DNA from: an uncultured Anaerolineales bacterium
Lineage (GTDB): Bacteria > Chloroflexota > Anaerolineae > UBA7937 > B3-Chlor
DNA: 64,000 nt
Assembly: GCA_964433755.1 (NCBI GenBank)
Contig: CAYSSR010000002.1
Span: 212,220-276,219, forward strand
Reading direction: 5' to 3'
Positions within the stretch are counted from its first letter, which is position 1, and the number at the start of each line of letters is the position of its first letter. Shown in pieces: positions 5,393 to 47,530 of this stretch. The translations under genes were made by a program, and so were the position numbers. The notes under the pieces are model-generated. The model did not search any database, had not been told where the DNA came from, and was given only the letters and a program-made list of their open reading frames with translations.

Positions 5393-5486
5393 GCAGTGGG
5401 TCACCCAAGGGTACACTGTGTCGAGGTGTACTACGGCGTGTGGCCGCTTGATGGAAGGACACCACCGGCAAGGCCGACGAGTCCAA

Positions 5487-5536
5487 CGACCGCCGAGCCC
5501 TTTGTAGCCGGACGGCATGAAGTGCGGCTACGGCTG
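5487..5536. repeat. 50-bp dispersed repeat, copy 2 (degenerate palindrome)
   Basis: GTAGCCGGACGGCATGAAGTGCGGCTAC; direct repeat of 4451..4500. Confidence 0.75.
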
Positions 5537-5723
5537 TTCCGCTCGTCCGCCGAAGCTGACAAACCCCGGCAGATGTAATACAACCATTGATGGTGGACTC
5601 GCTCCTGATGCGGCTGTCATGGCGGATCTCCACCTGACGGCCACACCCCGGGACACACAACGCGAGAGCGGCGCGTTCACCGTTCGATGGTATCGATCGA
5701 CTGATGTGGAGGATTGAGGTAAC

Positions 5724-6200
5724 GTGATCCGGTTGGCACCGATGAGCCAGAGTGATTTCGAGGTCTATCTCGAGTCTGCGATCGACCAGTATGCGCAGGA
5801 GCACGTCAGGGCCGGCAACTGGAGCCCCGACCAGGCTCGCAAGCTTTCCGAGGACAGCTATCACCACCTGCTGCCCGATGGGGTAGCCACCCCCGACCAA
5901 TACCTCTTCACCATCGAGGATCAGGCGCTGGGAGAGAAGGTGGGCATGCTCTGGTTTGCGGTGGAGGAGCGAGTGGAAGCACCACGTGTCTTTCTGTACG
6001 ACATCCGCATCGAAGAAGCCTATCGCCGCCGGGGCCACGCCACCGAGGCGCTTCAGGCACTGGAAGCGAGAGTGCGAGGACTAGGTGTAACGAGGAACAC
6101 GCTACACGTCTTCGGTCAAAACGACGCGGCGCAGGCGATGTACGAGAAGTTGGGATATCAGGTGACAGATCTGAGAATGTCCAAGACGTTGAGTCCATAG
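5724..6200 (+). CDS. GNAT family N-acetyltransferase
   Basis: YDIRIEEAYRRRGHA acetyl-CoA motif; LHVFGQNDAAQAMYEKLGY. Confidence 0.9.
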   Translation: MIRLAPMSQSDFEVYLESAIDQYAQEHVRAGNWSPDQARKLSEDSYHHLLPDGVATPDQYLFTIEDQALGEKVGMLWFAVEERVEAPRVFLYDIRIEEAYRRRGHATEALQALEARVRGLGVTRNTLHVFGQNDAAQAMYEKLGYQVTDLRMSKTLSP

Positions 6201-6265
6201 GATGAGCACGAGCGCCCGGACGCGGGGTCCGGCGCGAGGTTCACAGAGAAAAGGAGGGGAAGCTA

Positions 6266-6958
6266 GTGCAACAGACTGCACGCGTGGAAACCACAGACTC
6301 TGCCTGGAGAAGCCTCTACAGAATCGCAGCGGTGGCTGTCCTGATCTCGGTCGTTCTCATCCCCCTCTCCATGGTAGCCTATTTCCTGTGGCCGCCGTTT
6401 CCCGAAGACGTCCTGGCGGTGATCCAGGAGAATAGACTAGCCGGGCTGATGAGTCTCGACTTCATGTATCTGGCCAGCAGCCTCGTCGCCATCCCCCTCT
6501 TTCCCGCCCTCTACGCCACGCTCAGGCGAGTCAACCACGGTCTGGCGGCCCTGGCGCTGGCTATGGGACTGGTGGGGCTGGTATGCCTCGTGCCCGCGAG
6601 ACCCATTCTGGAGATGTTCACGATCAGCGACCAGTACGCGGCCGCCACGACTGATGCCCAGCGCGCCATCTACCTGGCAGCCGGAGAGGCTATATCCTCC
6701 ATGTTCTACGGCACGGCGTACAACGTGCACTACATCCTCGGTTCTGCTTCCATGCTCATCAGTTCGTTTCTTATGCTTCGCAGCAGCGTCTTCGGAAGAG
6801 GAACCGCCTACGTGGGCATCGCGACGAACATCGTGGTCTTCGGGCTCTACGTGCCCATCATAGGCGTATACCTCTCCCTCCTGTCTGTGTTGGGTTACTT
6901 TGTATGGTACATCCTGCTTGCCCGCAGGTTCTTCCGGCTGGGGTGGGGCGTCTCGTAG
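6266..6958 (+). CDS. DUF4386-like multi-pass membrane protein
   Basis: Multiple TM helices; SDQYAAATTDAQRAIYLAAGEA signature; AGGAGG RBS. Confidence 0.75.
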   Translation: MQQTARVETTDSAWRSLYRIAAVAVLISVVLIPLSMVAYFLWPPFPEDVLAVIQENRLAGLMSLDFMYLASSLVAIPLFPALYATLRRVNHGLAALALAMGLVGLVCLVPARPILEMFTISDQYAAATTDAQRAIYLAAGEAISSMFYGTAYNVHYILGSASMLISSFLMLRSSVFGRGTAYVGIATNIVVFGLYVPIIGVYLSLLSVLGYFVWYILLARRFFRLGWGVS

Positions 6959-8020: not shown

Positions 8021-8665
8021 ATGAGGTCAATCGATCTGCAGACGTGGCCGCGGCGGGAACACTTCCAGCTCTACAGTGGTTTCGACCATCCCCACCTCGG
8101 CCTGTCTGCAAATGTGGACTTAACGGCATTCTACGCAGGGGTAAAGCAACGCGGTTCTTCGATTGCAGTGGCTATCGCCTACGCGATCGCACGAGCAGCG
8201 AACGCGATCCCTGAGTTCCGCTATCGTATTCGAGGTGCGGAGGTCATCGAGCACGAGATCGTACATCCATCGACCACGATTCTGTCCGATGAGGATCTGT
8301 TCAGCTTCTGTACCTTTGACTACCTGGAGGACTTCTCGGACTTCCTTGCCAGAGCTACGGAGAGGATAGTCTACGTTCGGGAGCATCCTGGAGTGAAGAA
8401 CGAACCAGGACGGGACGATCTGTTGTACATGACGGCGATTCCCTGGGTCTCGTTCACGAGTTTCCTACACCCCTTGCACCTGCAGCCAGCCGATTCCGTG
8501 CCTCGGTTCGCCTGGGGGAAGTTCTTCGAAGAGGAGGAAGCTCTGAAGATGCCGCTGAGCGTCCAGGGACACCATGCGTTGATGGATGGAGTACACGTGG
8601 GCAGGTTCTATGCCCTGGTGCAGGAGTACTTCCGTGATCCACATCTCATCCTGGGCGAGGCATGA
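8021..8665 (+). CDS. cat: CatA-type chloramphenicol O-acetyltransferase-like protein
   Basis: IDLQTWPRREHF N-terminus, IPWVSFTS, PRFAWGKF and active-site HHALMDGVH (CAT consensus HHAVCDGxH). Confidence 0.8.
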   Translation: MRSIDLQTWPRREHFQLYSGFDHPHLGLSANVDLTAFYAGVKQRGSSIAVAIAYAIARAANAIPEFRYRIRGAEVIEHEIVHPSTTILSDEDLFSFCTFDYLEDFSDFLARATERIVYVREHPGVKNEPGRDDLLYMTAIPWVSFTSFLHPLHLQPADSVPRFAWGKFFEEEEALKMPLSVQGHHALMDGVHVGRFYALVQEYFRDPHLILGEA

Positions 8666-8909
8666 CGGCGGAGCCTCACCGGTCGACGCGGATCGCGACG
8701 CAGCCGAGCAGACTTGGAGCGCTGCTGCGTCACGCTGCGCCGATGGAACACAGTGTTACGCTCTGAGGCGTCCGACGTGTGATCGGTAGGCCGTTCACGT
8801 GACGTCCCACACCGTCACCCGCTGCGCCACGACCCTCATCCGTGCTCCGCAAGACCGGGGCTGGACTCAGAGAGGCAATCGGGGTGATAATGCCCCGAGG
8901 AAGATAGGG

Positions 8910-9533
8910 ATGAGAAAGGCCACCAGAGTAGTTGCCTCACTGTTTGGTCTCTTTGCCGGGTTTGGCGGTCCGGAACACGGCTACTTCGAAATCCTTCAAG
9001 GGAACGTCAGGCCAGAAGGCCTGATGATAGCTTCCATGGGCCCTCCCTGCGATCCGGAAAAGGTGTGGAATCTCTGCGAGCCCGCCATGACCGTTGTCCC
9101 CAGCTTTCTGATCACGGGCATCGTGGCCACCGCTGTCGGCGTGATCACCATGATCTGGTCGGTGGCCTTCATCCAGAGGAAACACGGCGGTTTGGTGCTC
9201 ATGCTGCTATCCATAGCACTGCTGCTGGTGGGAGGAGGTTTGTTCCCGCCAGTGATTGGATTCGTCGCCGGCGTGGTAGCGACCAGGATCAATGTACCGG
9301 TGACCAGGCAGCCCGGTAGGGTCTTGTCTCTCCTGGCCAGGTGGTGGCCGTGGCCACTCGTGGCCTTCTTCGTATGGGCTTTCGGACAGTTCGCCGTCGG
9401 TTACTTCTTCAACGATCTCCTGATGCAAAGCAGCTTTCTCGTGCCGCTGCTGATTGTCGGACTTCTGGTCCTGTCCATCTTCACCGGACATGCGTACGAC
9501 GTCCAGAATCGTGACCGAGCTGAGGTTCCATAG
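8910..9533 (+). CDS. Hypothetical multi-pass membrane protein
   Basis: Hydrophobic; EHGYFEILQGNVRP...GP...EPAMT motif shared with 11061..11756. Confidence 0.75.
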   Translation: MRKATRVVASLFGLFAGFGGPEHGYFEILQGNVRPEGLMIASMGPPCDPEKVWNLCEPAMTVVPSFLITGIVATAVGVITMIWSVAFIQRKHGGLVLMLLSIALLLVGGGLFPPVIGFVAGVVATRINVPVTRQPGRVLSLLARWWPWPLVAFFVWAFGQFAVGYFFNDLLMQSSFLVPLLIVGLLVLSIFTGHAYDVQNRDRAEVP

Positions 9534-34519: not shown

Positions 34520-35512
34520 TTACCTCCGGACGTAGCCGTGCTCTCGGAACCAGGCCACCGCTTTCCCCAACGCTTCCCTCGCAGGTGTCTGCCGCAGGCC
34601 CAACTCTCTCACAGCCTTGCTGGAGTCGAAGAACATCCGCTTGCGGGCCAGTCTCACGGTTGCCGGAGTCATCTGAGGCTGGCGTCCAGGGAGAAAGCGA
34701 TATGCCGCAGCGTACACATAGGAGAGACCAAGGACTGGGTAATAGGGCAGCCGTAACCTGGGCGCCGGCAAGCCAGTCAGGTCAGCCAGGGTGTCGAGCA
34801 TCTCTTTCAGAGTCAGGTTCTCGTGCCCCAGGATGTACCGTTCCCCAACCCGGCCCTTCTCTGCCGCCAGGAGATGGCCCTCGGCCACGTCCTCGACGTC
34901 CACGATATTCAGACCTGTGTCCAGATACGCAGGCATACGCCCGTTGAGGAAATCCACGATGGTGCGGCCTGTGGGTGTAGGCTTGATGTCGCGCACGCCC
35001 ACCGGGGTACTGGGGTTGACGATGACGACGGGTAGGCCTCTACTGGCGAAGTCTCTGGCCACCTCTTCCGCCAGGAACTTGCTGCGCTTGTAGTCGCTGA
35101 TCATGTCGGCCAGCCTCGCCGGCGTGTCCTCAGTCCCAGGGCTGCCATCCCTCGGCAGGCCCAGCGTGGCTACAGAACTCGTGTACACCACCCGTTCGAC
35201 CTGTGCGGCCTGGGCTGCGCGGAGCACGTTCCGGGTGCCTTCGACGTTGACGTCGTAGAAATCCTGGCGTGGGCTCCACCAGTAGCTGTACAAGGCGGCC
35301 ACATGGTAGACCTGCTCGCATCCTACCATGGCCGAGGAGAGACTCGCCGGGTCCCGCACATCGCCAGTGACCAGTTCAACTTTCAGATCAGCGATGTTGC
35401 GCAGGTCCGCCCCGGCGCGCACGAGCGCTCTCACCTGGTGCCCCGACGCCAGCAGTGCGCGCACGACGCTGGATCCCACGAACCCCGTCGCCCCCGTCAC
35501 CAAGGCCTTCAC
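34520..35512 (-). CDS. hpnA: HpnA-like NAD-dependent epimerase/dihydroflavonol reductase family protein
   Basis: LVTGATGFVG, HVAALY, YTSSVATLG, YKRSK, VNPSTPVG.RDIKPTPTG, GRMPAYLDTGLN. Confidence 0.8.
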   Translation of the reverse strand: MKALVTGATGFVGSSVVRALLASGHQVRALVRAGADLRNIADLKVELVTGDVRDPASLSSAMVGCEQVYHVAALYSYWWSPRQDFYDVNVEGTRNVLRAAQAAQVERVVYTSSVATLGLPRDGSPGTEDTPARLADMISDYKRSKFLAEEVARDFASRGLPVVIVNPSTPVGVRDIKPTPTGRTIVDFLNGRMPAYLDTGLNIVDVEDVAEGHLLAAEKGRVGERYILGHENLTLKEMLDTLADLTGLPAPRLRLPYYPVLGLSYVYAAAYRFLPGRQPQMTPATVRLARKRMFFDSSKAVRELGLRQTPAREALGKAVAWFREHGYVRR

Positions 35513-35825
35513 CGACTCAGCCTCCCATGCCCTCCAGACCATTCTAGCTCAGTTCTGTCCCCTTAACCACCCATTCCTGTTGGCCGGTATACGCCGGACC
35601 TACCGACGCTGTCCAGGAACTGGCAGTTCCTGACAGGTTCTGGCAGGTCGGTCCACTCTGCGGGACAGCCAGGATAGCTTCTGGGAGGGCGTCCGGTAGT
35701 TTTCGGCAGTTCCGATGTGTTACAAGGACTGTGGATTCGCACATCGTCTCCTATCCAGCTTTCAAAGGCACGGTTCACGCAGGAGTGCGCCATCCGCCAG
35801 CAATCAGAAGAGGGGGTACGCCAGC

Positions 35826-37295
35826 GTGAAAACCATCCTGTTTGTACTGCCGGCTCTACAGGAAGTCCTCTCCCAGGAATTCCGCCAGATCAAGTACTCA
35901 CTGTTCCCGCCTTTGAGCCTCCTGACCCTCGCGGGGCTGGTCCCTGAGGGAAGGTACAACCTCGTGGTGAGAGACGAGCACGTCGAAGATGTCTTCGTCG
36001 AAGGAGACGTAGACCTGGTGGTCATGACCGTCTACGTCTCCTCTGCCAGGAGAGCGTACGAGATCAGCGACTTCTATCGGGCTCGGGGTGCGAAGGTGTT
36101 CCTGGGCGGGATACATCCCACCACGATGCCAGAGGAGGCCGCTCAACACGCGGACAGCATCTGCCTCGGCCCCGGCGAATCTGTGTTCCTCCAGATGCTC
36201 GAGGACTTCGAGCATGGATGCCTGAAGCAATACTACCACGGACACAGAGACAGGGACGTCTCCAGGGTTCCCCTTGCGCGCCGGGACCTGATGAACACGG
36301 GCAAGTACCTCGTCCCGAATACCTCGGCGGTTTCCAGGGGCTGCCTCTACTCCTGCGACTTCTGCTACAAGGAGAGCTTCTGGGGCAAGAACTACTATGA
36401 GTTTCGTCCCTTAGCCGACGTCAGAAAGGAGTTGGACACCTTCCGGCACAAGTTCGTATTCTTCCTGGACGACAATCTGATGGGCAACCGCCGAGAAGCG
36501 AGAAGGCTCTTCGCCTTACTGAAAGAGTACCACTTCGTCTGGCAGGCGGCTGCCTCCATCGACACCGCCTATACGCCAGGGTTCCTGGAGGACGCCTACG
36601 AAGCAGGCTGCAGAAGCCTCTTCGTCGGGTTCGAGTCCATCACCAAAGCCAACATGGAACGTGCCCACAAGCCTCAGAACCAGAAGTACGACTACGCTGG
36701 CGCCATCAGGAGATTCCACGATGCGGGGATCATGATCAACGGTAGCTTCGTTCTTGGCTTCGACGAAGACGATCCCGACGTCTTCGCCAGGACGGTCGAA
36801 TTCGCCATCCGAAACAAGATCGAGACGGCGACCTTCCACATCTTGACTCCCTTCCCCGGCACCAGATTGTTCGCCAGGCTGGAGGCAGAGGGCCGCATCC
36901 TGCATCGGGATTGGAGCGCCTATGATACCCGTCACGTCGTCTTTCAGCCCAGACTCATGACCCCGTCCGAGCTAGAGGAGGGGTACTGGTGGTCCTACGA
37001 GGAGTTCTACTCGTATGGGTCGATTCTTCGCCGATCAGTCGGGCTACCGAACCCTCTGAAGAGGCTGGTATACAACGTGGGCTGGAAGAAGATGGACACT
37101 CTCTGGGGTTTTGCGATAGACCACAACCTGATTCCTCACTTACTGCCCCTATTCGAGTTTGCTCTGGCGAGGGGTACGTCGCCGCGAGGTTGCAGCCCAG
37201 AGGCGGAACTCAAACGCCTGGTCGGAGGGGCACGGGAGAGTCGTGAAATGGAAGGGGTAGCGGGAGTGGGTGATGAGCGAACCCACCTCGGTTAG
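35826..37295 (+). CDS. B12-binding-domain radical SAM protein
   Basis: PPLSLLTLA, GGIHPT, SRGCLYSCDFC, FLDDN, GFES, TPFPGT. The last ~40 codons look non-conserved. Confidence 0.9.
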   Translation: MKTILFVLPALQEVLSQEFRQIKYSLFPPLSLLTLAGLVPEGRYNLVVRDEHVEDVFVEGDVDLVVMTVYVSSARRAYEISDFYRARGAKVFLGGIHPTTMPEEAAQHADSICLGPGESVFLQMLEDFEHGCLKQYYHGHRDRDVSRVPLARRDLMNTGKYLVPNTSAVSRGCLYSCDFCYKESFWGKNYYEFRPLADVRKELDTFRHKFVFFLDDNLMGNRREARRLFALLKEYHFVWQAAASIDTAYTPGFLEDAYEAGCRSLFVGFESITKANMERAHKPQNQKYDYAGAIRRFHDAGIMINGSFVLGFDEDDPDVFARTVEFAIRNKIETATFHILTPFPGTRLFARLEAEGRILHRDWSAYDTRHVVFQPRLMTPSELEEGYWWSYEEFYSYGSILRRSVGLPNPLKRLVYNVGWKKMDTLWGFAIDHNLIPHLLPLFEFALARGTSPRGCSPEAELKRLVGGARESREMEGVAGVGDERTHLG

Positions 37296-37355
37296 CTCAT
37301 CACTACCCAGAACGGTGCTGGAAACCAGGGAGGCCACTGGGTCTCAACCACCCCC
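37261..37355 (-). pseudogene. Full-length altered duplicate of tRNA-Sec (anticodon position reads CCA; 3' half refolded)
   Basis: GGGGGTGGTTGAGACCCAGTGGCCTCCCTGGTTTCCAGCACCGTTCTGGGTAGTGATGAGCTAACCGAGGTGGGTTCGCTCATCACCCACTCCCG; about 75/96 identical to selC at 40604-40699 by hand; acceptor stem and D-stem strands identical. Confidence 0.8.
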
Positions 37356-37603: not shown

Positions 37604-38452
37604 TCAGGAACCCTTCTCCCTCCACAGGCTCGAGTCGGGCGTGAACAAGGGAGAACCGAACTCTTCGACACCGAACTGGCCGATCTTCTCCTGCGTGGGT
37701 ACAGATATCAGCCAGTCGATGAACTCGTTCGCGATGTCGGAGTTGATCTCCGGGCTCTTCTCCGGGTTCACTGCCATGACACCGTAGGGGTTGAACAGAA
37801 TGCTGTCGCCCTCCACCAGGATCACGAGCTCGGTACCCTCGAGCGTGCGAGCGAGGTACGTGGCCCGATCTGAGAGGGTGTAGGCCTGCTGCTCATCGGC
37901 CATGGTGAGCACCGCTCCCATGCCCTGCCCAGCCGAGACGTACCACGCACCCTCGGGCTCGACGTTCGCTGCTGCCCAGATCGCCTTCTCCTTGGTGTGG
38001 GTTCCGGAGTCGTCACCCCTGGAGACGAAGGCGGCCTCGGCCCCCGCGATCATGCCAAACGCCTCGGCTGCTTCGCCCATACCTGCTACGCCCGCAGGGT
38101 CCGCCTCTGGGCCTACGATGACGAAGTCGTTGTACATCACATCCTCACGACGTACCCCATGCCCCGCATCCATGAACGCATCTTCTCTGGCTCGCGCATG
38201 CACCAGGAGCACGTCGGCATCGCCGGCCTCGCCGATCTCGAGCGCCTGGCCAGTGCCCACGGCAACCACTTCCACTTTGACGTTATACTCCTCCTCGAAG
38301 TCGGGAAGAATGTAGTCCAGCAAGCCCGAATCCTGCGTACTGGTCGTGGTAGCCAGGGTCATGGTCTGCGGTTCCGCTGCCGGAGCGCCACACCCTGCCG
38401 CCAGGCTCAGCAGTACGGCACTAAGACAGAGCCAAATCCATAGCTTCCTCAT
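37604..38452 (-). CDS. tupA: Tungstate ABC transporter substrate-binding lipoprotein
   Basis: LATTTSTQDSGLL (TTTS motif), AVGTGQAL, FVSRGDDSGTH, YTLSDRATY; lipobox AAGC. Confidence 0.93.
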   Translation of the reverse strand: MRKLWIWLCLSAVLLSLAAGCGAPAAEPQTMTLATTTSTQDSGLLDYILPDFEEEYNVKVEVVAVGTGQALEIGEAGDADVLLVHARAREDAFMDAGHGVRREDVMYNDFVIVGPEADPAGVAGMGEAAEAFGMIAGAEAAFVSRGDDSGTHTKEKAIWAAANVEPEGAWYVSAGQGMGAVLTMADEQQAYTLSDRATYLARTLEGTELVILVEGDSILFNPYGVMAVNPEKSPEINSDIANEFIDWLISVPTQEKIGQFGVEEFGSPLFTPDSSLWREKGS

Positions 38453-38582: not shown

Positions 38583-39314
38583 TCAGTACGTCATCTCGCC
38601 CCGAACGAAGGCCGCGGTGCGTGGGTCGCGAGGCGACTGGAAGAACTTCTCTACCTGGGCTGTCTCCACGATATGCCCGTCCAGCAACAGCGCTACCTGA
38701 TGAGCCAAACGCCTGGCCTGGAACACGTTGTGCGTCACCAGCACAAGTGTGGTTCCCTTCTCGCTGTTGAGCGTACGCACGATTTCTTCGATCAGTCCCA
38801 CGTTATACGGGTCAAGATTCGCGGTCGGCTCGTCCAGAAGCAGCACGTCTGGATCGAGCACCATAGCTCGGGCCAACGCCACACGTTGCCCTTCACCTCC
38901 GGAGAGCGTTCGAGCTTGTCGCCTGGCGAAGGTTCGCAGACCCACCTCTTCCAGGGCCGCCTCTATCCGCCTGGCGCTGTGCCGCCGACCTCTCAGGTGC
39001 AGACCGAACTTCACGTTGTCCCACACCGTCCTGTTTAGTAGCATGGGGCGCTGAAACACAGTAGTCACTCGACGAGACAGTTCGAGTGGCATGGGCTTGG
39101 TGGCGCTGAACTCCTCTCCGTGATAACGCACGTATCCGGTGGTGGGTGGCTCCAGGAAGTTCAGCAACCTGAGCAGGGTGCTCTTGCCCGCGCCACTCGG
39201 TCCTACGAGCGCGAAAATCTCTCCACGATGGACATCCAGCCTATCCACTTGCAGGACAATCTGACCGTCGTACTCCTTCGTTGCGCCACGCACCTCGTAG
39301 ACAGACTCGCTCAC
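38583..39314 (-). CDS. tupC: Tungstate ABC transporter ATPase
   Basis: GPSGAGKS Walker A, LSGGE, LLLDEPT, H-loop VTHN; context. Confidence 0.9.
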   Translation of the reverse strand: MSESVYEVRGATKEYDGQIVLQVDRLDVHRGEIFALVGPSGAGKSTLLRLLNFLEPPTTGYVRYHGEEFSATKPMPLELSRRVTTVFQRPMLLNRTVWDNVKFGLHLRGRRHSARRIEAALEEVGLRTFARRQARTLSGGEGQRVALARAMVLDPDVLLLDEPTANLDPYNVGLIEEIVRTLNSEKGTTLVLVTHNVFQARRLAHQVALLLDGHIVETAQVEKFFQSPRDPRTAAFVRGEMTY

Positions 39315-40033
39315 TGGTCAAACGTCCTTCCTTGCAGGCGCAGCATGGCCACGTTCGTGGCGAAGGAGAGTCCCAGTAGAACCACTCCCAGAGACATCGC
39401 CAAGTCAAAGTTGCCTTTCCGTGTCTCCAACACGATCGCGGTGGTGAGCACTCTCGTGCTGTGCTCGATGTTACCGCCGACCATCATCACCGCGCCCACT
39501 TCTGAGATGATGCTGCCAAAACCAGCAATCACAGAGACCACGACGCCCACCCGTGCTTCCATCAACACAGTCGCCGCGGTCTGCCACCGTGTGGCGCCCA
39601 GAGCACGCACCTGTCTCCGCAGTTCTGGATCCACCCCCATGACCGCAGCCATCGTAAAGCCAGCCACCAGCGGAAAGGAGATGATGCTCTGCGCTACTAC
39701 CATAGCCGCGGGGGTGAAAAGCGATGGAATGAGCCGGGAGCCTAGCTGCCCCAGGGGTCCACTGCGTGAGAGCATCAAGTAGACAAAGAGACCTACTACC
39801 ACCGGCGGAAAGCCCATGCCGGTGTAGAGCAGGGCGATCACGAGCCGACGCCCGAAGAAGCGACTCAATCCGAGAAAAGCTCCGAGAGGAATCCCGATCA
39901 GTGTGCTGATCAGCAGAGCAACACCCGACACCGAAAGGGACAGCCGCACGATCTCGTAGAGAGCGCTATCACCCGTGACGATCAGGTACAAAGCCTGGAC
40001 TAGACCATTCAGGATCTCTTCGATGGTCTGCAC
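39311..40033 (-). CDS. tupB: Tungstate ABC transporter permease
   Basis: GFPPVVVGL, ALGATR, AGFGSIISEVGA, GGNI...TRVLTTAI. Confidence 0.92.
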   Translation of the reverse strand: MQTIEEILNGLVQALYLIVTGDSALYEIVRLSLSVSGVALLISTLIGIPLGAFLGLSRFFGRRLVIALLYTGMGFPPVVVGLFVYLMLSRSGPLGQLGSRLIPSLFTPAAMVVAQSIISFPLVAGFTMAAVMGVDPELRRQVRALGATRWQTAATVLMEARVGVVVSVIAGFGSIISEVGAVMMVGGNIEHSTRVLTTAIVLETRKGNFDLAMSLGVVLLGLSFATNVAMLRLQGRTFDQ

Positions 40034-40213: not shown

Positions 40214-40245
40214 AAAAGGACGGCGCCCCGAAAAGGACGCCGTCC
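40214..40245 (-). terminator. Intrinsic terminator (riboswitch expression platform of tupBCA)
   Basis: Minus strand GGACGGCGTCC-TTTTCG-GGGCGCCGTCC followed by TTTT. Confidence 0.8.
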
Positions 40246-40265
40246 GCAAACAGCCCGTCGGCGGA

Positions 40266-40364
40266 TCTCCTTTCCAAGAATGGGAGGTATAGCCGTTTCC
40301 AGCTATGCCCTATCGGCCTCGCTCCATTGGTCCGTGCTGTCCATTAGGTGACGAAGCTCGGAGA
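40266..40364 (-). ncRNA. Moco/Tuco riboswitch upstream of tupBCA
   Basis: TCTCC GAGC...CCTAA...AGGGC ATAGCT GGAAAC GGCTAT ACCTCCC ATTCTT GGAAA GGAGA; P1 is TCTCC/GGAGA; conserved CCTCCC...GGAAAGG core. Confidence 0.88.
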
Positions 40365-40396
40365 CACGACAAGATTAGATGTTCAAGAGCCAAGGG

Positions 40397-40601: not shown

Positions 40602-40699
40602 GGCGGGAGTGGATGGGAGTCGAACCCACCATGGCTAGCTCGTCGCTACCCATCAACGGTTTTGAAGACCGCGGAGGCCACCGGGTCTCTACCACCCCC
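40602..40699 (-). tRNA. selC: tRNA-Sec (anticodon UCA)
   Basis: 8-bp acceptor stem GGGGGTGG/CCACTCCC, G73, 6-bp D-stem with 4-nt loop, anticodon loop CT-TCA-AA, long variable arm, GTGGG-TTCGACT-CCCAT T-arm; the genomic 3' end reads CCT. Confidence 0.97.
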
Positions 40700-40708
40700 A
40701 CTCCACCA

Positions 40709-40737
40709 ATCATACAACCTTTGGCGTGGACAGTCAA
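40709..40737 (-). promoter_or_regulatory. Sigma70 promoter for selC
   Basis: TTGACT-17 bp-TATGAT, 9 nt upstream of the tRNA 5' end. Confidence 0.75.
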
Positions 40738-40850: not shown

Positions 40851-41537
40851 CTAGTCCAGCTTCAGGGGCAGCCAATGGTCGCCACACCACCGGACGATGG
40901 CGACAGCCTCCCCTCCTCTACGAGCGGGCCGCAGCTTGTCCGCCGCCACCAGCCCCTCGACCACCCGCTCTCCCTGCTCGGTACGTACGGCCGATATGCC
41001 CGCTTCCTGCAAGACCGACACCGGCTGCCGGCCTCGGAGCTCGCGCGATCTCCCCACCAGCACGTAGCGGCCGTCGTCGCCACTGGCGGCCAGACCCACC
41101 GCCGCCAGTGCTCCGATCACTCCGCTCTCGTCCCCGCCCAGACCCTCGAGTGGAAGACCATGGAGGCTGGCCAAAGAGCGTGCCTCATCCTGCGTAGCCA
41201 ATCGACTCTTAACCTGACGACCGAAGTCCACGACTGCGGGACCCACCACCTGAGCCACGCAGAGACCTGGATCGCTTCCCGGCTGGTGGCCATCCAGCAC
41301 CATCTGACGAACGCGCCGCAGAACGTCGTGGGGGTCGGGATTCTCGTTCCCATCCAGCAGGATGGCTGCCGAGCTGTTCTTCTTGGTGCAGGGGATGCGT
41401 GGATCCCTCAGCAGTTGGTGCCGCGTCACTCCCAAGACCACCAAGTCAGCCGAGAGCGACGCCGCAATCTGACGAGCCAGGTATCCAGTGCCCCGCGACT
41501 CCAACGTATCCGTGTCGTCTAGACCGACAATCAACAT
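40851..41537 (-). CDS. Stand-alone TiaS-like (DDTD-motif) ATP-utilising domain protein
   Basis: VGLDDTD, DPRIPCTKKNSS, SDPG, GVIGALAAVG correspond to TiaS N-terminal domains; 228 aa with no OB-fold or zinc ribbon. Confidence 0.75.
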   Translation of the reverse strand: MLIVGLDDTDTLESRGTGYLARQIAASLSADLVVLGVTRHQLLRDPRIPCTKKNSSAAILLDGNENPDPHDVLRRVRQMVLDGHQPGSDPGLCVAQVVGPAVVDFGRQVKSRLATQDEARSLASLHGLPLEGLGGDESGVIGALAAVGLAASGDDGRYVLVGRSRELRGRQPVSVLQEAGISAVRTEQGERVVEGLVAADKLRPARRGGEAVAIVRWCGDHWLPLKLD

Positions 41538-41633: not shown

Positions 41634-41882
41634 ATGAGCAAGATCTTCGTTCGAGAGAGACGCCACGTCGGGCCCGGAGCAGGGCGACCCCGCTTCGCCA
41701 TCGTCGCGTCGCAGGGCGCTGATCTACGGGTCTACAAGACTCGCGTGCGCCGCTCGGAGCTAGAGACCATCGCGAGCCAGAGCGGGGCAGAGATCGTCCA
41801 TCTGCCCAGGGGCGAACAGTCGGACGAGGAGGAGCAACAAGCCACCCAGCGCCGCGGACGCCGTGGGCGCGATGCTGGGTAG
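41634..41882 (+). CDS. 82-aa hypothetical protein
   Basis: AGGAGG RBS, coding-like codon usage, 6 bp upstream of the DUF134 gene. Confidence 0.7.
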   Translation: MSKIFVRERRHVGPGAGRPRFAIVASQGADLRVYKTRVRRSELETIASQSGAEIVHLPRGEQSDEEEQQATQRRGRRGRDAG

Positions 41883-41888
41883 GGCTCC

Positions 41889-42215
41889 ATGCCCCGGCCT
41901 CGCAAGCGTCGAGTCCTGGCCAGCGAGCCTCGACCGGTGATCTACAAGCCGGCAGGGGTACCACTGAACCGCCTAAGCTCAGTGTCACTACTGCACGAGG
42001 AACTTGAGGCTCTGCGGCTGGCCGACGCAGAGGGTATGCTCCAGACAGCGGCAGCGGACCGGATGGGCATTTCTCGCTCCACCTTTCAGCGTGTGCTTGC
42101 CCGAGCGCGTTCGCGGGTGGCTCTTGCTCTGACAGGCGGCCATGCCCTGCGTATCGAGGGCGGTAGCTACGAAGTGCAACCACCACGCCTTCGGGGGCCG
42201 CGCCGCAGGCGGTAG
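41889..42215 (+). CDS. DUF134 HTH protein (predicted DNA-binding)
   Basis: MPRPRKRR...YKPAGVPL...EELEALRLADAEG..Q..AA.RMGISRSTFQR.L..AR..VA.AL..G.ALRIEGG. Confidence 0.92.
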   Translation: MPRPRKRRVLASEPRPVIYKPAGVPLNRLSSVSLLHEELEALRLADAEGMLQTAAADRMGISRSTFQRVLARARSRVALALTGGHALRIEGGSYEVQPPRLRGPRRRR

Positions 42216-42255: not shown

Positions 42256-43086
42256 TCACTCCCGACGGTAGATCCGCGTGCCCGGGTTCTTCCCCTCCAG
42301 CGCCAGTGTGAGGTTGCCGGGGGCCAGGCCGTTGATGATCTGTACCTCTCGTACACTTCTGGCTCCTGCCAGGGCCCGCACCATGGCCCGTTCCACCGCC
42401 AGATCAGCCAGGTCCAACTCCAGGAGTTCGTTGACCTCGATCTCCGGGATAAACTCGGCCTGCGGCTCCTTCTTGGGGTCAGCCGTGTACAGACCTTCCT
42501 CGTCCTTGACCAGGATACAGCATCTGGCGCCCAGGACCTCTGCGGTGAGAAAGGCCCCGAAGTCGGTGCGGTGAGGCGGAATCCGCCCTCTGATCGGCGG
42601 CTCCTCCCAGAGTCCGTAGGGAGGCATGGCGTGCATTACCGGTATCGTGCCCAAGGCCAGGAACGAAGGGAGCTTGACCAGATCGTCGTGTCCGATCTTC
42701 ACACCGCCGCGAGGAGCAAGGAGGATGGAGATCATCAGGGCGTTCTGCTCGCTGATGCTCGAACCCAGCTTGGCTAGCACGCCTGTGGGCATCCCCAGGT
42801 CCAGCGCAATGGAGTACGCGTGACGGCTACGGGTCCCGCCTCCCGTCACCACCAGGAGATCGTGTCCTTCTCTCGCTGCGACGATCTCCTCGATCAGAGG
42901 CAGCACCACCTTACGCCCGCGATCGATGATGCTCTGTCCCCCCAGCTTGACCACGTTGAGATCAGGCAAAGGTCGGAACACGTGCCCGATCTCGGTGCCC
43001 TCGAGCAGACCCTTGTCCATCAGCGACTCGGCCATCAACTCTGTCTCGATGTGCAGCCGGCCGCTGTCATCCCTTACCAGGCCCAT
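42256..43086 (-). CDS. Molybdenum storage protein (MosA/MosB)-like amino-acid-kinase-fold protein
   Basis: VKLGGQSIIDRG, TGGGTRSRH.Y.IALDLGMPTGVL, EQNALM, MPPYGLWE, IPPHRTD.GAFL.AE, VKDEEGLYTADPK. Confidence 0.82.
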   Translation of the reverse strand: MGLVRDDSGRLHIETELMAESLMDKGLLEGTEIGHVFRPLPDLNVVKLGGQSIIDRGRKVVLPLIEEIVAAREGHDLLVVTGGGTRSRHAYSIALDLGMPTGVLAKLGSSISEQNALMISILLAPRGGVKIGHDDLVKLPSFLALGTIPVMHAMPPYGLWEEPPIRGRIPPHRTDFGAFLTAEVLGARCCILVKDEEGLYTADPKKEPQAEFIPEIEVNELLELDLADLAVERAMVRALAGARSVREVQIINGLAPGNLTLALEGKNPGTRIYRRE

Positions 43087-43197
43087 CTGTGCCTTCCCTT
43101 CGTGTCTGGCAGCCTGCCCCCAACCCAACGCCAAGCAGACGAGCCTCGCCCGTCTACATACACAGAAACAGGATGAGACGGGCTGCGGCTGGCCCGT

Positions 43198-43722
43198 TCA
43201 GCTCCCCTGCAACCGATCCTGGTACCCGTGACGCAGATCCGACCCGGCAGCCTCTCGGAGGATCTCGATCCCGTGCGGCAGAACGGGGAAGATCACCTCC
43301 AGCCCCTCTCGCACAGCCTTGGTGCTCCCGGGCAGATTCACCACCAACGTCTGACCACGGATGCCGGCGACACCTCGGGAGAGCATCGCATGAGGCGTAG
43401 CTTTGGCACCCTCCGTTCTCATGGCCTCAGCCAGTCCCGGCGCCTCCCGCTCGATGATCCCCCTGGTAGCCTCTGGAGTAACGTCTCGCGGCGCGAAGCC
43501 GGTCCCCCCCGTAGTCAGGATCAGATCGAGGTCTTTCACGTCACACCATTCTATCAAGACTTGGCGGATGGAGTCCTGCTCATCCGGAACAACGGCTTGC
43601 TCCGTCACCTCGGCCTGCAGTCGCTCCACAACCAGATCCCTGATCAGGGGGCCGCTGGCATCTTCGGCCTCGCCCCGAGAGCATCGGTCGCTCACTGTCA
43701 GGACGCCCACGGAGATCTTCAT
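43198..43722 (-). CDS. mog: MogA/MoaB molybdopterin adenylyltransferase
   Basis: VLTVSDR, DASG, VPDE, TTGGTGFAPRDVTPEA, SRGVAGIRG.TL.VNLPGS. Confidence 0.93.
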   Translation of the reverse strand: MKISVGVLTVSDRCSRGEAEDASGPLIRDLVVERLQAEVTEQAVVPDEQDSIRQVLIEWCDVKDLDLILTTGGTGFAPRDVTPEATRGIIEREAPGLAEAMRTEGAKATPHAMLSRGVAGIRGQTLVVNLPGSTKAVREGLEVIFPVLPHGIEILREAAGSDLRHGYQDRLQGS

Positions 43723-45005
43723 GCGCCACTCCTAGACGACTCCAAGTCCCAAACTGAAGGGGCTGTATCACTGCCGCCCCTTTCCAGCAGCATGACCGTC
43801 ACACGGCTGCCCGCCGGCGCACGACTCCAGTCCTCCGGGATGATCGCCAAACCATCCGCTTCGATCATGGAGCTCAGAATCCCGGACCCCTGTTCTCCGG
43901 TGAGATACGCCTGCCACTCGCCGGCCTCCTCCAGGCGCACGCGCAAATAGTGACGGCGATCGTCCTTCCGCGACACTTCGTCCATGAGCACAGCCTCAAG
44001 GGTCGGACGCCTCCACTCCGTGGCGCCCTGCATCCTGAGAATCGCAGGGCGGGCGAAGAGCTCGAAGGAGATCATCGCCGAGACGGGATTCCCCGGCAAG
44101 CCCAACAACGGCACCCCCTCGATCTGTCCAAAAGCCAGAGGCTTTCCGGGCTTCATCCGTACACGCCAGAAAGTCATCTGGCCCTCAGCGGCCAACACTT
44201 CCTTCACCACGTCGAAATCGCCCACAGACACCCCGCCCGAGGTCAAGAAGAGGTCCACGCCTTGCGCCAGGCCGGTTCTGATCATCTCTGTCAGCTCTTC
44301 CACCTGGTCCCGAGCGATGCCCAGGACCACCGGAATGCCACCGCACTGCATCACCTGCGCGGCGTTGGAGTAGCTGTTCGCATTTCGTATCTTGCCCGGG
44401 GCCAGAGGCTGATCAACCTCCACCAACTCGTCGCCGGTAGCGAGAATGCCCACTCTCGGCCGCCGGGTGACCATGATCTCCTTCCGCCCCAGAGTGGCAG
44501 CCATGCCCACCTCCTGGGCACGGATCCGAGTTCCTGGACGGAGCACCAGCGTTCCCGCGCGGACATCCTCTCCAGCCGCTCGAGTGTCCTTGCCCACGGG
44601 CACGTCCACCTTCACGTCCACCCAGTCTCCATCACGGTCGGTATCCTCAAAGCGTACCACAGCATCAGCGTCCTCCGGCAAGGGCGCCCCGGTCATGATG
44701 CGTATGGTCGTGCCCGGCTCCACCGCCTTGTCGCTGACGTAGCCCGCCCCCAGGTCGCCCACCATCAGCAGGCGTCTTGGAGACTCGGGTGTCGCCCCCA
44801 CCGTGTCAGCCGCTTGCACAGCATAGCCGTCCATGGCCGAGTTGGTGTACGGTGGTATATCGACGTCGGCGCGCACGTCCTCGGCCAGAACGCGGCCCAG
44901 AGCCTCCAGTATCGGTACTCGCTCCGGCTCCAGGAGATCAAAGAAGCCCAGTACTCGTTCCAGGGCTTCTTCAACGCTCAGAACTGGGTACAGCTCACTC
45001 ACCAT
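43719..45005 (-). CDS. moeA: MoeA molybdopterin molybdo/tungstotransferase
   Basis: NSAMDGYAV, RIMTGAPLP, ATGDEL, NANS, TSGGVSVGDFD, KPGKP, LPGNPVS. Confidence 0.95.
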   Translation of the reverse strand: MVSELYPVLSVEEALERVLGFFDLLEPERVPILEALGRVLAEDVRADVDIPPYTNSAMDGYAVQAADTVGATPESPRRLLMVGDLGAGYVSDKAVEPGTTIRIMTGAPLPEDADAVVRFEDTDRDGDWVDVKVDVPVGKDTRAAGEDVRAGTLVLRPGTRIRAQEVGMAATLGRKEIMVTRRPRVGILATGDELVEVDQPLAPGKIRNANSYSNAAQVMQCGGIPVVLGIARDQVEELTEMIRTGLAQGVDLFLTSGGVSVGDFDVVKEVLAAEGQMTFWRVRMKPGKPLAFGQIEGVPLLGLPGNPVSAMISFELFARPAILRMQGATEWRRPTLEAVLMDEVSRKDDRRHYLRVRLEEAGEWQAYLTGEQGSGILSSMIEADGLAIIPEDWSRAPAGSRVTVMLLERGGSDTAPSVWDLESSRSGA

Positions 45006-45436
45006 TCGCCCTTCCATTCAGCACCATCTGCCCAGACTTCTTTCTTCCAGACGGGCACTATCTCCTTCAGCCGGTCGATCGCATAGCGCAATGCTTCGAA
45101 GACCTCTTCCCGATGGGCTGCGGACAGGGCGATGACTGCACTCACCTCCCCGGGCTGCAAGCGTCCAACACGATGAACGATAGCGACTCTGTCGATGCTC
45201 GCCCATCTTTGGCGGATCTCTTCACCCACCTGCTCCAGCATCTCTTCGGCCATCCCGGGATAGTGCTCGTACTCCAGGTAGCGAACTGCTCGACCATCGG
45301 TGTGGTCGCGAGCGACGCCTACGAACGAGGCCACAGCCCCGATGGAAGGGCTCGCCACCTGCGTCACGACCTCGTCCACATGCAACTCCCGCGTGGTAAT
45401 CTCGAACGGTCCGAGGGATGATGCTGTCGTCACCAA
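44999..45436 (-). CDS. moaE: Molybdopterin synthase catalytic subunit
   Basis: GAVASFVGVARD, LEYEHY, HRVGRL, SAAHREE.F, IDRLKEIVPVWKKE. Confidence 0.95.
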   Translation of the reverse strand: MVTTASSLGPFEITTRELHVDEVVTQVASPSIGAVASFVGVARDHTDGRAVRYLEYEHYPGMAEEMLEQVGEEIRQRWASIDRVAIVHRVGRLQPGEVSAVIALSAAHREEVFEALRYAIDRLKEIVPVWKKEVWADGAEWKGEW

Positions 45437-45438
45437 TC

Positions 45439-45684
45439 CTACCCTCCCGATACCGGCGGTATGCAGGCGACCTCATCGCCCTCGAACAGTTCCGTTCCCG
45501 GATCGGCATACCTCCGATTCACCGCGATCCTGACCGCGGCAGCGTAGCTCCCCAGAACCGGGTACCCCTCAACGAGGTCGGAAAGCAGTTGCCCGGCAGT
45601 CATTCCAGTATCGATCTCCCAATCCAGCTCTTTCGTGCCGAGCGCCTCCCGGGGACCACCGAAGAGCTTGATCTTCACTCGCAT
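45439..45684 (-). CDS. moaD: MoaD sulfur carrier
   Basis: 81 aa ubiquitin-like; AVNRRY; C-terminal PPVSGG. Confidence 0.95.
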
Positions 45685-46163
45685 GGGGACTCCTCGAGCA
45701 CGAGATCCCCGCTGCTCCCTCCGCTCTTCCTCACCAATCTGATCTCCCCGATCCTCATCGTCCTCTCCACGGCTTTGGCCATGTCATAGATGGTCAGCGC
45801 AGCCACACTCACCGCTGTGAGCGCCTCCATCTCCACGCCGGTCTGCCCTCGGCTTTGCGCCGTGGCCGTGATCTCTATCCGCGAGCCGGTTTCATCGACC
45901 TGGAAGTCCAGATCTACCTTGGTCAACAGAACAGGGTGACACAGCGGGATGAGCTCGGGAACCTTCTTGGCAGCCTGAATGCCTGCTACCCTGGCCACGG
46001 CGAACACATCCCCCTTGGGTAGTGCCTTCTCCACAATGAGACGGAGGGTCGCCGGACGCATGCTCACCTCTCCCCTGGCCACAGCCACCCTCTTCGTAGC
46101 TGGCTTGTCACCTACGTCCACCATTTGAGCGCGACCTTCATCGTCCAGATGAGTCAATTCCAT
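45675..46163 (-). CDS. moaC: Cyclic pyranopterin monophosphate synthase
   Basis: [39 protein letters not shown]. Confidence 0.96.
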
Positions 46164-46241
46164 GGTGCCCCCCATATGCCGTGGATGATCGCCACTGACG
46201 CAGCCAGACCGTTGTCGTCCCCCAGCCAGTCGACCAAGACT

Positions 46242-47237
46242 CTAGCCGCCGAGCTGAGACATGGTTCGCCGCAGCGAAGTCACCGACTCCGCCAGGTGGT
46301 GCTCGCGCGGCTTGCTCTGCACACCCCTGAGCAGCAGTTCCCTAATCTCGGCCACGCCCGCGCCCTGCCGCAACGGGGTCCGCAGATCGATCTCCGCGTC
46401 CGAGAGAAGACACGGCCGAAGCTGCCCGTCAGCCGTCAGGCGCATCCTGTTGCATCGGCAGCAGAAATGCTCGCTGATCGGGGTTATGAAGCCCACAGTG
46501 CCCCGCGCTCCCGGCAACCGGTAGTAGCGCGCAGGTCCGTTCCCGACAGATACCTTCGCTGCTGTCAGTGGCCCAAGCTCGCTCTCGATCTTTCCCCGCA
46601 TCTCCTCCGCGGTCACGACCTTCTGTCGCCATTCGTCGCCGACAAGGCTTCCACTGCCTACCGGCATTAGCTCGATGAAACGCAGATCCCAGCCCTCCTC
46701 TATCGTTTGGCGAGCGAAGTCAACGATCTCATCATCATTGATGCCCCTGATGACCACCGCGTTGATCTTTACGGGATCGAGCCCCGTTCTCCTGGCAGTC
46801 TCTATTCCATCCAGCACGTCCTGGAGCCGCCCGCCACGAGTGATCCACGCGAAGCGCTCCGGACGCAGTGAGTCGACGCTGACGTTGACCCTACGGAGCC
46901 CCGCCTTGGCCAGAGCAGATGCATAGCGCGATAGCAGAGTGCCATTTGTGGTCATCGCCAGGTCGTCGATCCCCGGGATGCCGGATAGCATCCTCACCAG
47001 ATCCACTACCCCCAACCGAACCAAAGGCTCACCACCTGTCAGGCGCACCTTGCTGATCTGTAGTTCTGCGGCCGCGCGCACTACGGTCTCGATCTCTTCG
47101 TAGGTCAGAATCGCTCCGTGCCCGACCGACGGCACACCCTCCTCGGGCATACAGTACTCGCATCGCAGGTTGCAGCGATCAGTCACAGAGATGCGAAGAT
47201 AGCTGATCGGACGATTGCACGGATCCAGATGTGTCAT
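46242..47237 (-). CDS. moaA: GTP 3',8-cyclase
   Basis: YLRISVTDRCNLRCEYC, RLTGGEPL, FCCRCNRMRLTADG.LRPCL, C-terminal GG. Confidence 0.96.
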   Translation of the reverse strand: MTHLDPCNRPISYLRISVTDRCNLRCEYCMPEEGVPSVGHGAILTYEEIETVVRAAAELQISKVRLTGGEPLVRLGVVDLVRMLSGIPGIDDLAMTTNGTLLSRYASALAKAGLRRVNVSVDSLRPERFAWITRGGRLQDVLDGIETARRTGLDPVKINAVVIRGINDDEIVDFARQTIEEGWDLRFIELMPVGSGSLVGDEWRQKVVTAEEMRGKIESELGPLTAAKVSVGNGPARYYRLPGARGTVGFITPISEHFCCRCNRMRLTADGQLRPCLLSDAEIDLRTPLRQGAGVAEIRELLLRGVQSKPREHHLAESVTSLRRTMSQLGG

Positions 47238-47354
47238 CGACCCCCGACGACTCCCTCTTGACCGTCAGCCCACACGGCCAGACAGCTTACGCCTCCCACC
47301 GTAGCCACTTCTCTCCCCTCAGCGGGCACCGTGCCCACCAAGCCACGAAGGTTC

Positions 47355-47388
47355 AAAAAAGGCGCCCCCTGAAAGGTAGTGGACGCCT
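47355..47388 (-). terminator. Intrinsic terminator (riboswitch expression platform of moa operon)
   Basis: Minus strand AGGCGTCC...GGGGCGCC followed by TTTTTT. Confidence 0.8.
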
Positions 47389-47410
47389 CACCAAATCCTG
47401 TCTGCAGCCC

Positions 47411-47509
47411 TTCTCCTTTCCAACCACGGGAGGCATAACCGTTTCCAGTTGTGCCCTGTCGCCCAATACCCGTAAGCCCGAGGACTCCCAGGGTCATTGG
47501 GTCGGAGAA
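47411..47509 (-). ncRNA. Moco/Tuco riboswitch upstream of moaA
   Basis: TTCTCC GACCCAATGACCCTGGG...GGGTATTGGG...AGGGC ACAACT GGAAAC GGTTAT GCCTCCC GTGGTT GGAAA GGAGAA. Confidence 0.9.
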
Positions 47510-47530
47510 TCGGTCTATACTCTCGATTCT

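Follow-up and report, generated by a model that had tools for sequence, protein, structure and literature searches.

A stand-alone TiaS-type kinase-domain protein of an Anaerolineales bacterium belongs to a distinct family linked to tungsten and molybdenum genes

The gene described here lies on a 64,000-nucleotide stretch of DNA from an uncultured Anaerolineales bacterium (GenBank assembly GCA_964433755.1, contig CAYSSR010000002.1; hereafter, the window), where it occupies positions 40851..41537 of the minus strand and encodes a stand-alone TCKD (TiaS-type kinase domain) protein. The analysis revealed a catalytic fold that is known, in an architecture and a conserved functional context that are new: the stand-alone TCKD proteins are a distinct family, not TiaS orthologues, and their genes are linked, at the level of association, to genes for tungsten and molybdenum (W/Mo) transport, storage, and cofactor synthesis. 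Read along the minus strand, the locus in the window is composed of a riboswitch, the moaA-moaC-moaD-moaE-moeA-mogA genes, a gene encoding a MoSto-like protein, a divergent pair encoding a DUF134 protein and a small protein, the TCKD gene, the tRNA-Sec gene selC, a further riboswitch, the tupB-tupC-tupA genes, and a tRNA-Sec copy with CCA at the anticodon position. The features are as follows:

43198..47519, minus strand: molybdenum cofactor (Moco) biosynthesis operon, behind the second Moco riboswitch at 47397-47519 (Pfam, Rfam, clustering)
46242-47237, minus strand: moaA (Pfam)
45675-46175, minus strand: moaC (Pfam)
45439-45684, minus strand: moaD (Pfam)
44999-45436, minus strand: moaE (Pfam)
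43719-45017, minus strand: moeA (Pfam)
43198-43722, minus strand: mogA/moaB (Pfam)
42256..43134, minus strand: homologue of the molybdenum storage protein (MoSto), amino-acid-kinase family (Pfam AA_kinase, PDB)
41889..42215, plus strand: helix-turn-helix protein of the DUF134 family, probably a regulator, its gene running in the same direction as that of the small protein (Pfam PF02001, E = 3e-21)
41634..41882, plus strand: small basic orphan protein, 82 amino acids, isoelectric point (pI) 11.2, divergent from the TCKD gene (tblastn, clustering)
40851..41537, minus strand: stand-alone TCKD protein, 228 amino acids, ATG start
40602..40699, minus strand: selC, tRNA-Sec with anticodon UCA (ARAGORN; Rfam, 70.3 bits)
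40251..40375, minus strand: Moco/tungsten cofactor (Tuco) riboswitch aptamer ahead of tupB, predicted to control tupBCA (Rfam RF01055, 68.1 bits)
39311-40033, minus strand: tupB, tungstate ABC importer (Pfam)
38583-39314, minus strand: tupC, tungstate ABC importer (Pfam)
37604-38452, minus strand: tupA, tungstate ABC importer (Pfam)
37262..37355, minus strand: degenerate tRNA-Sec copy, CCA at the anticodon position (blastn, alignment; sub-threshold in Rfam)

The open reading frame (ORF) at 40851..41537 is not a chance one, because it has thousands of homologues (3880 at E <= 1e-3 among the candidates of a word-indexed search). The encoded protein carries a DDTD motif (D7, D8, T9, D10), the segment PRIPCTKKN at residues 46-54, GSDPGL at residues 87-92, and GVIGALAA at residues 139-146. 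The first-pass annotation of this DNA had already read DDTD, DPG, GxIGALAA, and PRIP from the letters, and all of them are present, the spacing of the second segment being PRIP.T..N, one position fewer than it had given. The Pfam model TiaS_TCKD (PF22641) matched the protein with 33.1 bits against a gathering cut-off of 27 (E = 6.8e-8), and the same model matched 27 of 34 diverse family members at E <= 0.01. Residue conservation, read from the alignment of these 34 members, revealed D7, D8, T9, D10, G16, T17, T51, N54, S88, G142, G156, and P204 as invariant (34/34), with R39-H40-Q41, G87, D89-P90-G91, G139, I141, and A143 nearly so. In the hidden Markov model (HMM) alignment, T17 of the family pairs with Thr18 of TiaS, which Terasaka et al. 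are said to have identified in 2011 as the autophosphorylation site of that enzyme. Since the DDTD motif and T17 are both conserved, the ATP/Mg and Thr machinery of the stand-alone family appears to be intact. The conserved residues that are specific to the family (RHQ 39-41, GSDPG 87-91, DGR 155-157, and R203-P204) suggest a substrate pocket unlike that of TiaS.

The structural comparison pointed to the same relationship. The window protein was modelled by AlphaFold2 from the family alignment (pLDDT 95.4, pTM 0.92), and a Foldseek search of the model against the PDB, a check that had been proposed for this protein, returned TiaS structures as its only significant matches (E 1e-8 to 7e-6, probability 1.00), with alignments of about 150 columns and an rmsd of 2.2-2.5 Å to TiaS of A. 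fulgidus. Likewise, the profile of the 34 members matched TiaS chains of the PDB at E ~2e-10, over residues 2-152 only, and a fragment of P. furiosus TiaS (3U02) at E = 4e-14. The N-terminal ~150 residues therefore share the TCKD fold with TiaS (PDB 3AMT/3AMU/3AU7/4RVZ/5XOB; fragment 3U02), together with the motifs DDTD, the equivalent of Thr18, P-x-PY-T-x-x-N, (N/D)PG, and GxIGALAA. After TiaS, Foldseek ranked the HPPK pterin pyrophosphokinases, weakly and at noise level (E ~0.04, TM 0.25-0.35). In the model, the TCKD fold spans residues 1-~152, and residues ~155-228 are predicted to form a family-specific beta-rich domain bearing the DGR and RP motifs. Modelled alone, these C-terminal ~75 amino acids reached a pLDDT of 83, and a PDB search with the isolated domain found no matching structure (lowest E = 1.2, with a faint resemblance to a PRC barrel). 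Two candidate identities for this domain, the ferredoxin-like domain (FLD) of TiaS and a molybdate-binding barrel of the TOBE/Mop type, were rejected because the isolated domain gave no PDB match and no Pfam hit.

When features of TiaS membership were tested on the window protein, four of the five were lacking, and the TCKD with DDTD and Thr was the one present. TiaS_FLD gave a Pfam E-value of 0.24 over 34 residues only and was not counted as present, the Foldseek alignments to TiaS ended at ~150-155 columns, and neither Pfam nor the fold search found an OB fold or a zinc ribbon. The absence of the OB and zinc-ribbon domains had been claimed from the letters alone and holds: the protein ends at residue 228, and about 150 residues superpose on TiaS. 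Against the NCBIfam TiaS equivalog NF040849, the protein scored 17.8 bits, compared to a cut-off of 600. Nearly all family members have 225-255 amino acids, whereas TiaS has about 420, and their C-terminal 75 amino acids form an unrelated small beta domain in place of the FLD, OB fold, and zinc ribbon. The family also differs from TiaS in being acidic (median pI 5.7; 6.2 for the window protein) and in occurring in bacteria, which are expected to use TilS, and in contexts of Mo/W and energy-coupling factor (ECF) transporter genes, not in translation contexts. Because the OB fold, the zinc ribbon, and the FLD are missing, the TiaS equivalog failed, and the C-terminal 75 amino acids differ, the stand-alone TCKD proteins are not TiaS orthologues. 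The best NCBIfam match of the window protein was methanogenesis marker protein 11 (TIGR03280; 43.8 bits, cut-off 255.8), with window residues 2-153 aligned to profile positions 135-286 of 292. This is another non-TiaS protein carrying a TCKD-like module; in contrast to it, the window family lacks the N-terminal 134 positions and is not restricted to methanogens.

Grouped at 50% identity, the relatives found by an exhaustive search formed 821 clusters, of which 510 lay at E <= 1e-10, and a scan with one genome per species found a relative in at least 486 species genomes. The best 80 genomes belonged to Chloroflexota (mostly Anaerolineae), Spirochaetota/Leptospirales, and archaea of the Methanomicrobiales, and more distant members were found in Crenobacter (Betaproteobacteria), Dehalococcoidia, planctomycete-like contigs, and one archaeal contig. 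Informative fusions of the TCKD to other domains were also considered and rejected, as the entries of greater length seem to result from wrongly called starts or from frameshifts. Regarding nomenclature, JGI labels the family 'tRNA(Ile2) C34 agmatinyltransferase TiaS' and NCBI labels it 'ABC transporter substrate-binding protein', so that the public annotation is inconsistent and probably wrong. The TiaS label is unsuited because the tests of TiaS membership failed, and no support for the ABC transporter label was found in the present analysis.

To describe the genomic context, all ORFs located up to 7 kb from the TCKD gene in 82 related loci and in the window were clustered without prior labels, and TupA, TupA fusions, and stand-alone Oxidored_molyb-like proteins were split and counted separately. 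Strict Mo/W genes, defined as those encoding TupA/B, MoSto-like proteins, moa products, TunR-like regulators combining GntR with a periplasmic-binding-protein (PBP) domain, or Wtp-like PBPs, were present within this distance in 62 of the 82 loci, and only two loci had none of the recurrent neighbour families. An ECF transporter was encoded in 50 of the 82 loci, true tupA/tupB in 41, the divergent basic protein of ~82 amino acids in 40 (including 11/11 archaeal loci), a MoSto-like protein in 39 (10/11 archaeal), a periplasmic protein with an Oxidored_molyb-like domain in 37 (fused to TupA in 20), DUF134 in 24, and the GntR regulator with PBP-like domain and moaA/C/D/E in 18 each. The C-terminal domain of the GntR regulator matches the region of archaeal MoeA fusions that binds oxyanions (NF011068, E = 1.9e-65). 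In the archaeal loci the order small< MoSto-like> TCKD> tupA> tupB> tupC> was kept in 9-11 of 11 cases. The Mo/W link is not confined to one clade, since the Crenobacter locus, whose TCKD protein has 38% identity, carries modABC and modE in addition to an S-like protein with a TonB-dependent receptor and an Oxidored_molyb protein. A linkage of the TCKD gene to W/Mo transport, storage, and cofactor genes is thus supported at the level of association, and so is a role in W/Mo metabolism, the alternative raised by the first-pass annotation, for which synteny over ~170 related loci argues. Of the genes whose co-occurrence it had proposed to check, tup and moa recurred as neighbours in the related loci, and tRNA-Sec was present in 2 of 172 loci.

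Several of these neighbours deserve description. The Oxidored_molyb-like domain has ~130 amino acids, is extracytoplasmic, and corresponds to the Pfam family Oxidored_molyb, a molybdopterin-binding domain; many copies contain a CxDC motif. It is found as a stand-alone lipoprotein, whose gene often immediately precedes that of the TCKD protein, in tandem repeats, and in fusion with TupA (20 loci), with examples at 5485-6333 and 8585-9313 of locus L002, 8548-9930 of L018, and 5399-5941 of L083. The small basic protein is composed of a conserved core of ~60 amino acids (FVRxRR...PRF.IVA...RRxELExIA...GAEIVYLPRGE) and a variable tail rich in Arg, Lys, and His, and it had no relative in Pfam, NCBIfam, or the PDB. 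In the Methanoculleus-type loci (L068-L081), the spacer of ~90 bp between the genes for the MoSto-like and TCKD proteins is strongly conserved (…TTTTCATTAAC…GAGAAGCCTTC…GGATCGGTACAG…) and could serve as an archaeal promoter or as the operator of a regulator that responds to W/Mo. The MoSto-like protein of the window matched MoSto beta of the PDB (2ogx_B) at E = 3.6e-75 and MoSto alpha at E = 5e-51, and its true start is probably at 43086, giving 276 amino acids. It is a clear homologue of the MoSto beta and alpha subunits of Azotobacter vinelandii situated in a Mo/W uptake cluster; Azotobacter has a mosA/mosB pair, whereas a single MoSto-like gene is found here, and we know of no TCKD partner for the Azotobacter system. 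The TCKD protein may act on the MoSto-like protein, and the single-gene MoSto-like protein, whose position beside the TCKD gene is conserved in both Chloroflexota and Methanomicrobiales, could possibly be a homo-oligomeric tungsten/molybdenum store in anaerobes.

The most constant partner of the TCKD gene is a YkoE-like S-component, alone or within an ECF transporter. Sixty-eight loci extended far enough downstream to be judged, and in 46 of them an ECF operon directly followed the TCKD gene on the same strand. The four parts of this operon are an ATPase of the fused EcfAA' type, a T component of the CbiQ type, an extracytoplasmic protein that is anchored in the membrane and for which no family match was found, and a polytopic protein of 181 amino acids that scored just over the threshold of PF09819 (ABC_cobalt/YkoE). 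The membrane-anchored periplasmic protein and the YkoE-like S-component are encoded, for example, at 13011-14078 of L001, with equivalents in ~49 loci. The S-component-like protein bears the motif '(L/I/V)PGHxG', and its gene abuts the TCKD gene upstream or downstream, mostly with overlap, in L083, L085, L087, L088, L089, and L090, and is divergent from it in L086. A metagenome scan seeded from a distant clade added 80 further loci, 41 of them with >=700 bp on both sides; in 34 of these 41, the S-component gene was adjacent or lay inside an ECF operon, and in two the S-component, the ECF and Mo/W genes, and the small protein were all missing. Among distant members the Mo/W genes are often gone and the S-component-like membrane protein is kept. 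In the archaeal contig L090, the upstream partner showed a faint NusG_II match.

This arrangement resembles the group I ECF system YkoEDC-YkoF, which likewise combines a PF09819 S-component, a fused EcfAA' ATPase, and a CbiQ-type T component with a soluble cytoplasmic accessory protein encoded in the same operon, YkoF being that accessory. It differs in having a TCKD protein instead of a YkoF-type binding protein, an extra membrane-anchored periplasmic component, and a Mo/W context instead of a thiamine one, and its S-component is often encoded beside the TCKD gene where an ECF module is missing. The L058 locus reads TCKD-ECF-tupBCA, and the lineage of the window has selC and a riboswitch where the ECF genes sit elsewhere. 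Two Moco/Tuco riboswitches frame the cluster in the window, one before moaA and one before tupB. The latter has a promoter-like site of its own and is directly followed by a terminator-like hairpin at 40245..40218, as determined by promoter and terminator scans. The TupA encoded downstream scored 229 bits against the NCBIfam TupA model, under its equivalog cut-off of 400. In L010, two tandem aptamers precede moaA (4928-5047 and 5120-5241). Control of the TCKD-ECF operon by a Moco riboswitch was also considered and rejected: none was found in 14 loci, where riboswitches occurred only before moaA or tupB.

Taking fold, motifs, and synteny together, our favoured reading, which we put tentatively and at a little under an even chance, is that the TCKD protein is a cytoplasmic ATP-using enzyme, made of the TCKD and the C-terminal beta domain, that does not modify tRNA and acts as a partner in W/Mo acquisition. 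By this reading, Mg-ATP would be bound through the DDTD motif and a phosphoryl transfer like that of TiaS would follow, possibly by way of the invariant Thr17 (the equivalent of TiaS Thr18). The species delivered by the transporter, with tungstate or molybdate favoured, would then be captured or activated, and it would finally be handed over to the MoSto-like store or to cofactor synthesis. An oxyanion is favoured because the neighbours handle oxyanions (TupABC, the MoSto-like protein, PBP-type regulators, TupA fusions), because the ECF operon resembles metal-type ECF systems in encoding an additional periplasmic component, because the TCKD-ECF operon does not lie behind a Moco riboswitch in the 14 loci, and because the archaeal operons have no pterin genes. 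The more specific proposal is that the TCKD protein and the YkoE-like S-component constitute, either by themselves or joined by the ECF module and the periplasmic Oxidored_molyb-like protein, a new W/Mo uptake-and-capture system that would activate an oxyanion or a pterin precursor with ATP and feed the MoSto-like store; we consider this possible and, on balance, unlikely.

Several observations weigh against the favoured reading. An HMM search of all ORFs found no S-component, EcfT, or periplasmic partner in the 64 kb of the window, and the archaeal loci also lack S-component/ECF genes nearby, so the S-component context and the Tup/MoSto context are joined only through other genomes. Conversely, many of the distant pairs of S-component and TCKD genes have no Mo/W genes nearby. 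ECF S-components usually carry vitamins, not oxyanions, and the chemistry of TiaS, which is directed at a pyrimidinone carbonyl, would by analogy point to a pterin or pyrimidine sooner than to an oxyanion. Synteny is association only and is silent on the reaction. A literature search found no publication on the stand-alone TCKD family and no biochemistry of any member. The interest of the question lies in the fact that enzymes with tungsten or molybdenum are fundamental to the anaerobic metabolism of carbon, nitrogen, and sulfur, while the way in which cells discriminate, capture, and route tungstate and molybdate is only partly understood. If the uptake-and-capture proposal is true, the system would be the first ECF-type importer of W/Mo (or of a Moco precursor), and its substrate would be the first non-RNA one for the TiaS kinase fold. 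The function of the family could bring to light an unrecognised step in the acquisition or storage of W/Mo, add a second function, outside tRNA, to the TiaS kinase fold, or define a new class of ECF or solitary S-component transporter, and it would correct a systematic annotation error.

The main rival to an oxyanion is a pterin or pyrimidine substrate. The S-component/ECF transporter would import a precursor or breakdown product of the Mo/W cofactor (a pterin), or a pyrimidine, and the TCKD protein would act as a salvage kinase, activating or phosphorylating it with ATP and so trapping it in the cell. This refines the alternative of the first-pass annotation, in which a pterin or pyrimidine carbonyl would possibly be activated. 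The kinase domain of TiaS reportedly activates the C2 carbonyl of a pyrimidinone, according to the 2011 work of Terasaka and of Osawa, and the S-component falls in the YkoE family PF09819, whose known substrate, transported by YkoE-type S-components, is a pyrimidine. The operon is also accompanied by periplasmic proteins with the fold of a molybdopterin-binding domain, and HPPK enzymes came next, weakly, after TiaS in the Foldseek ranking, a likeness that is, however, at noise level. The same genomes carry complete moaACDE-moeA-mogA sets beside the gene, no Moco riboswitch precedes the TCKD-ECF operon in the 14 loci, and oxyanion-type regulators and TupA fusions dominate the neighbourhood. We regard a salvage kinase as a doubtful explanation.

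A third option is a regulatory autokinase, in which Thr17 would be autophosphorylated and the protein would gate or phosphorylate the S-component, the ECF transporter, the MoSto-like protein, or the small basic protein, leaving the transported molecule untouched. TiaS has been described as a dual protein and RNA kinase, with its kinase domain confirmed (PMC11938285). The invariance of Thr17 fits such a switch, and its partner could be the divergently encoded small basic protein or the neighbouring MoSto-like protein. However, no partner is present in all loci, and the conserved RHQ 39-41, GSDPG 87-91, DGR 155-157, and R203-P204 suggest a pocket for a small molecule; we regard this option as more doubtful again than a salvage kinase. 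The last alternative, put forward in the first-pass annotation, is that the protein modifies C34 of the CCA tRNA-Sec copy, or of another tRNA, to read UGA, which is highly improbable and largely refuted by distribution, with tRNA-Sec in only 2 of 172 related loci. Further points against it are the decay of the copy and the properties of the protein, which is acidic, has no FLD, OB fold, zinc ribbon, or other RNA-binding module, and scores 17.8 against the TiaS equivalog cut-off of 600.

The observations that had prompted the tRNA proposal are themselves confirmed. The selC gene starts 151 bp downstream of the TCKD stop codon on the same strand, as found by ARAGORN and Rfam, in agreement with the distance of about 150 bp given before, and the order TCKD-selC-riboswitch-tupBCA is repeated in L092, a relative with 74% identity. 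Nevertheless, selC has a promoter-like site of its own (40737..40709), which counts against the recoding proposal, and since selC and the riboswitch each have such a site, the promoter scan suggests that selC and the tup riboswitch belong to separate transcription units. ARAGORN was run over the 172 related loci (1.84 Mb), and tRNA-Sec genes were detected only in L092 and L010, both close relatives, with selC of L010 located 7 kb from the TCKD gene, beyond the moa operon. The adjacency of selC and the TCKD gene is therefore local to a single small clade, and a conserved selC linkage was rejected.

The C34-bearing variant of tRNA-Sec exists as a sequence with CCA at the anticodon position, but it lies 3.3 kb beyond selC, is decayed, and does not pass tRNA detection. 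Its identity to each of the three selC genes is ~78-80%, and that among the three genes themselves is ~95%. ARAGORN did not call it in the window, and Rfam detected it only when given 221 bases, with 26.3 bits where the gathering score is 47. Its stems, namely those of the acceptor and of the D, anticodon, variable, and T arms, contain non-canonical pairs; the disruption of the T-arm noted earlier is thus borne out and extends to the anticodon stem. Folded alone, the copy forms a long and very stable hairpin and not a cloverleaf (-49 kcal/mol, z = -4.1). In the syntenic L092 the copy was sought and is absent, and in the window it sits exactly at the edge of ~3 kb that are missing from L092, a segment composed of the copy, a B12-radical-SAM gene (35715-37295), and an NAD-epimerase gene (34520-35542). 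A functional CCA tRNA-Sec variant was rejected on account of its sub-threshold Rfam score, several broken stems, and absence from L092, and the most fitting reading of the copy is that of a relic, now decayed, left by a rearrangement or insertion. It may be the relic of an insertion at a selC-like site, serving now at most as a terminator between convergent genes.

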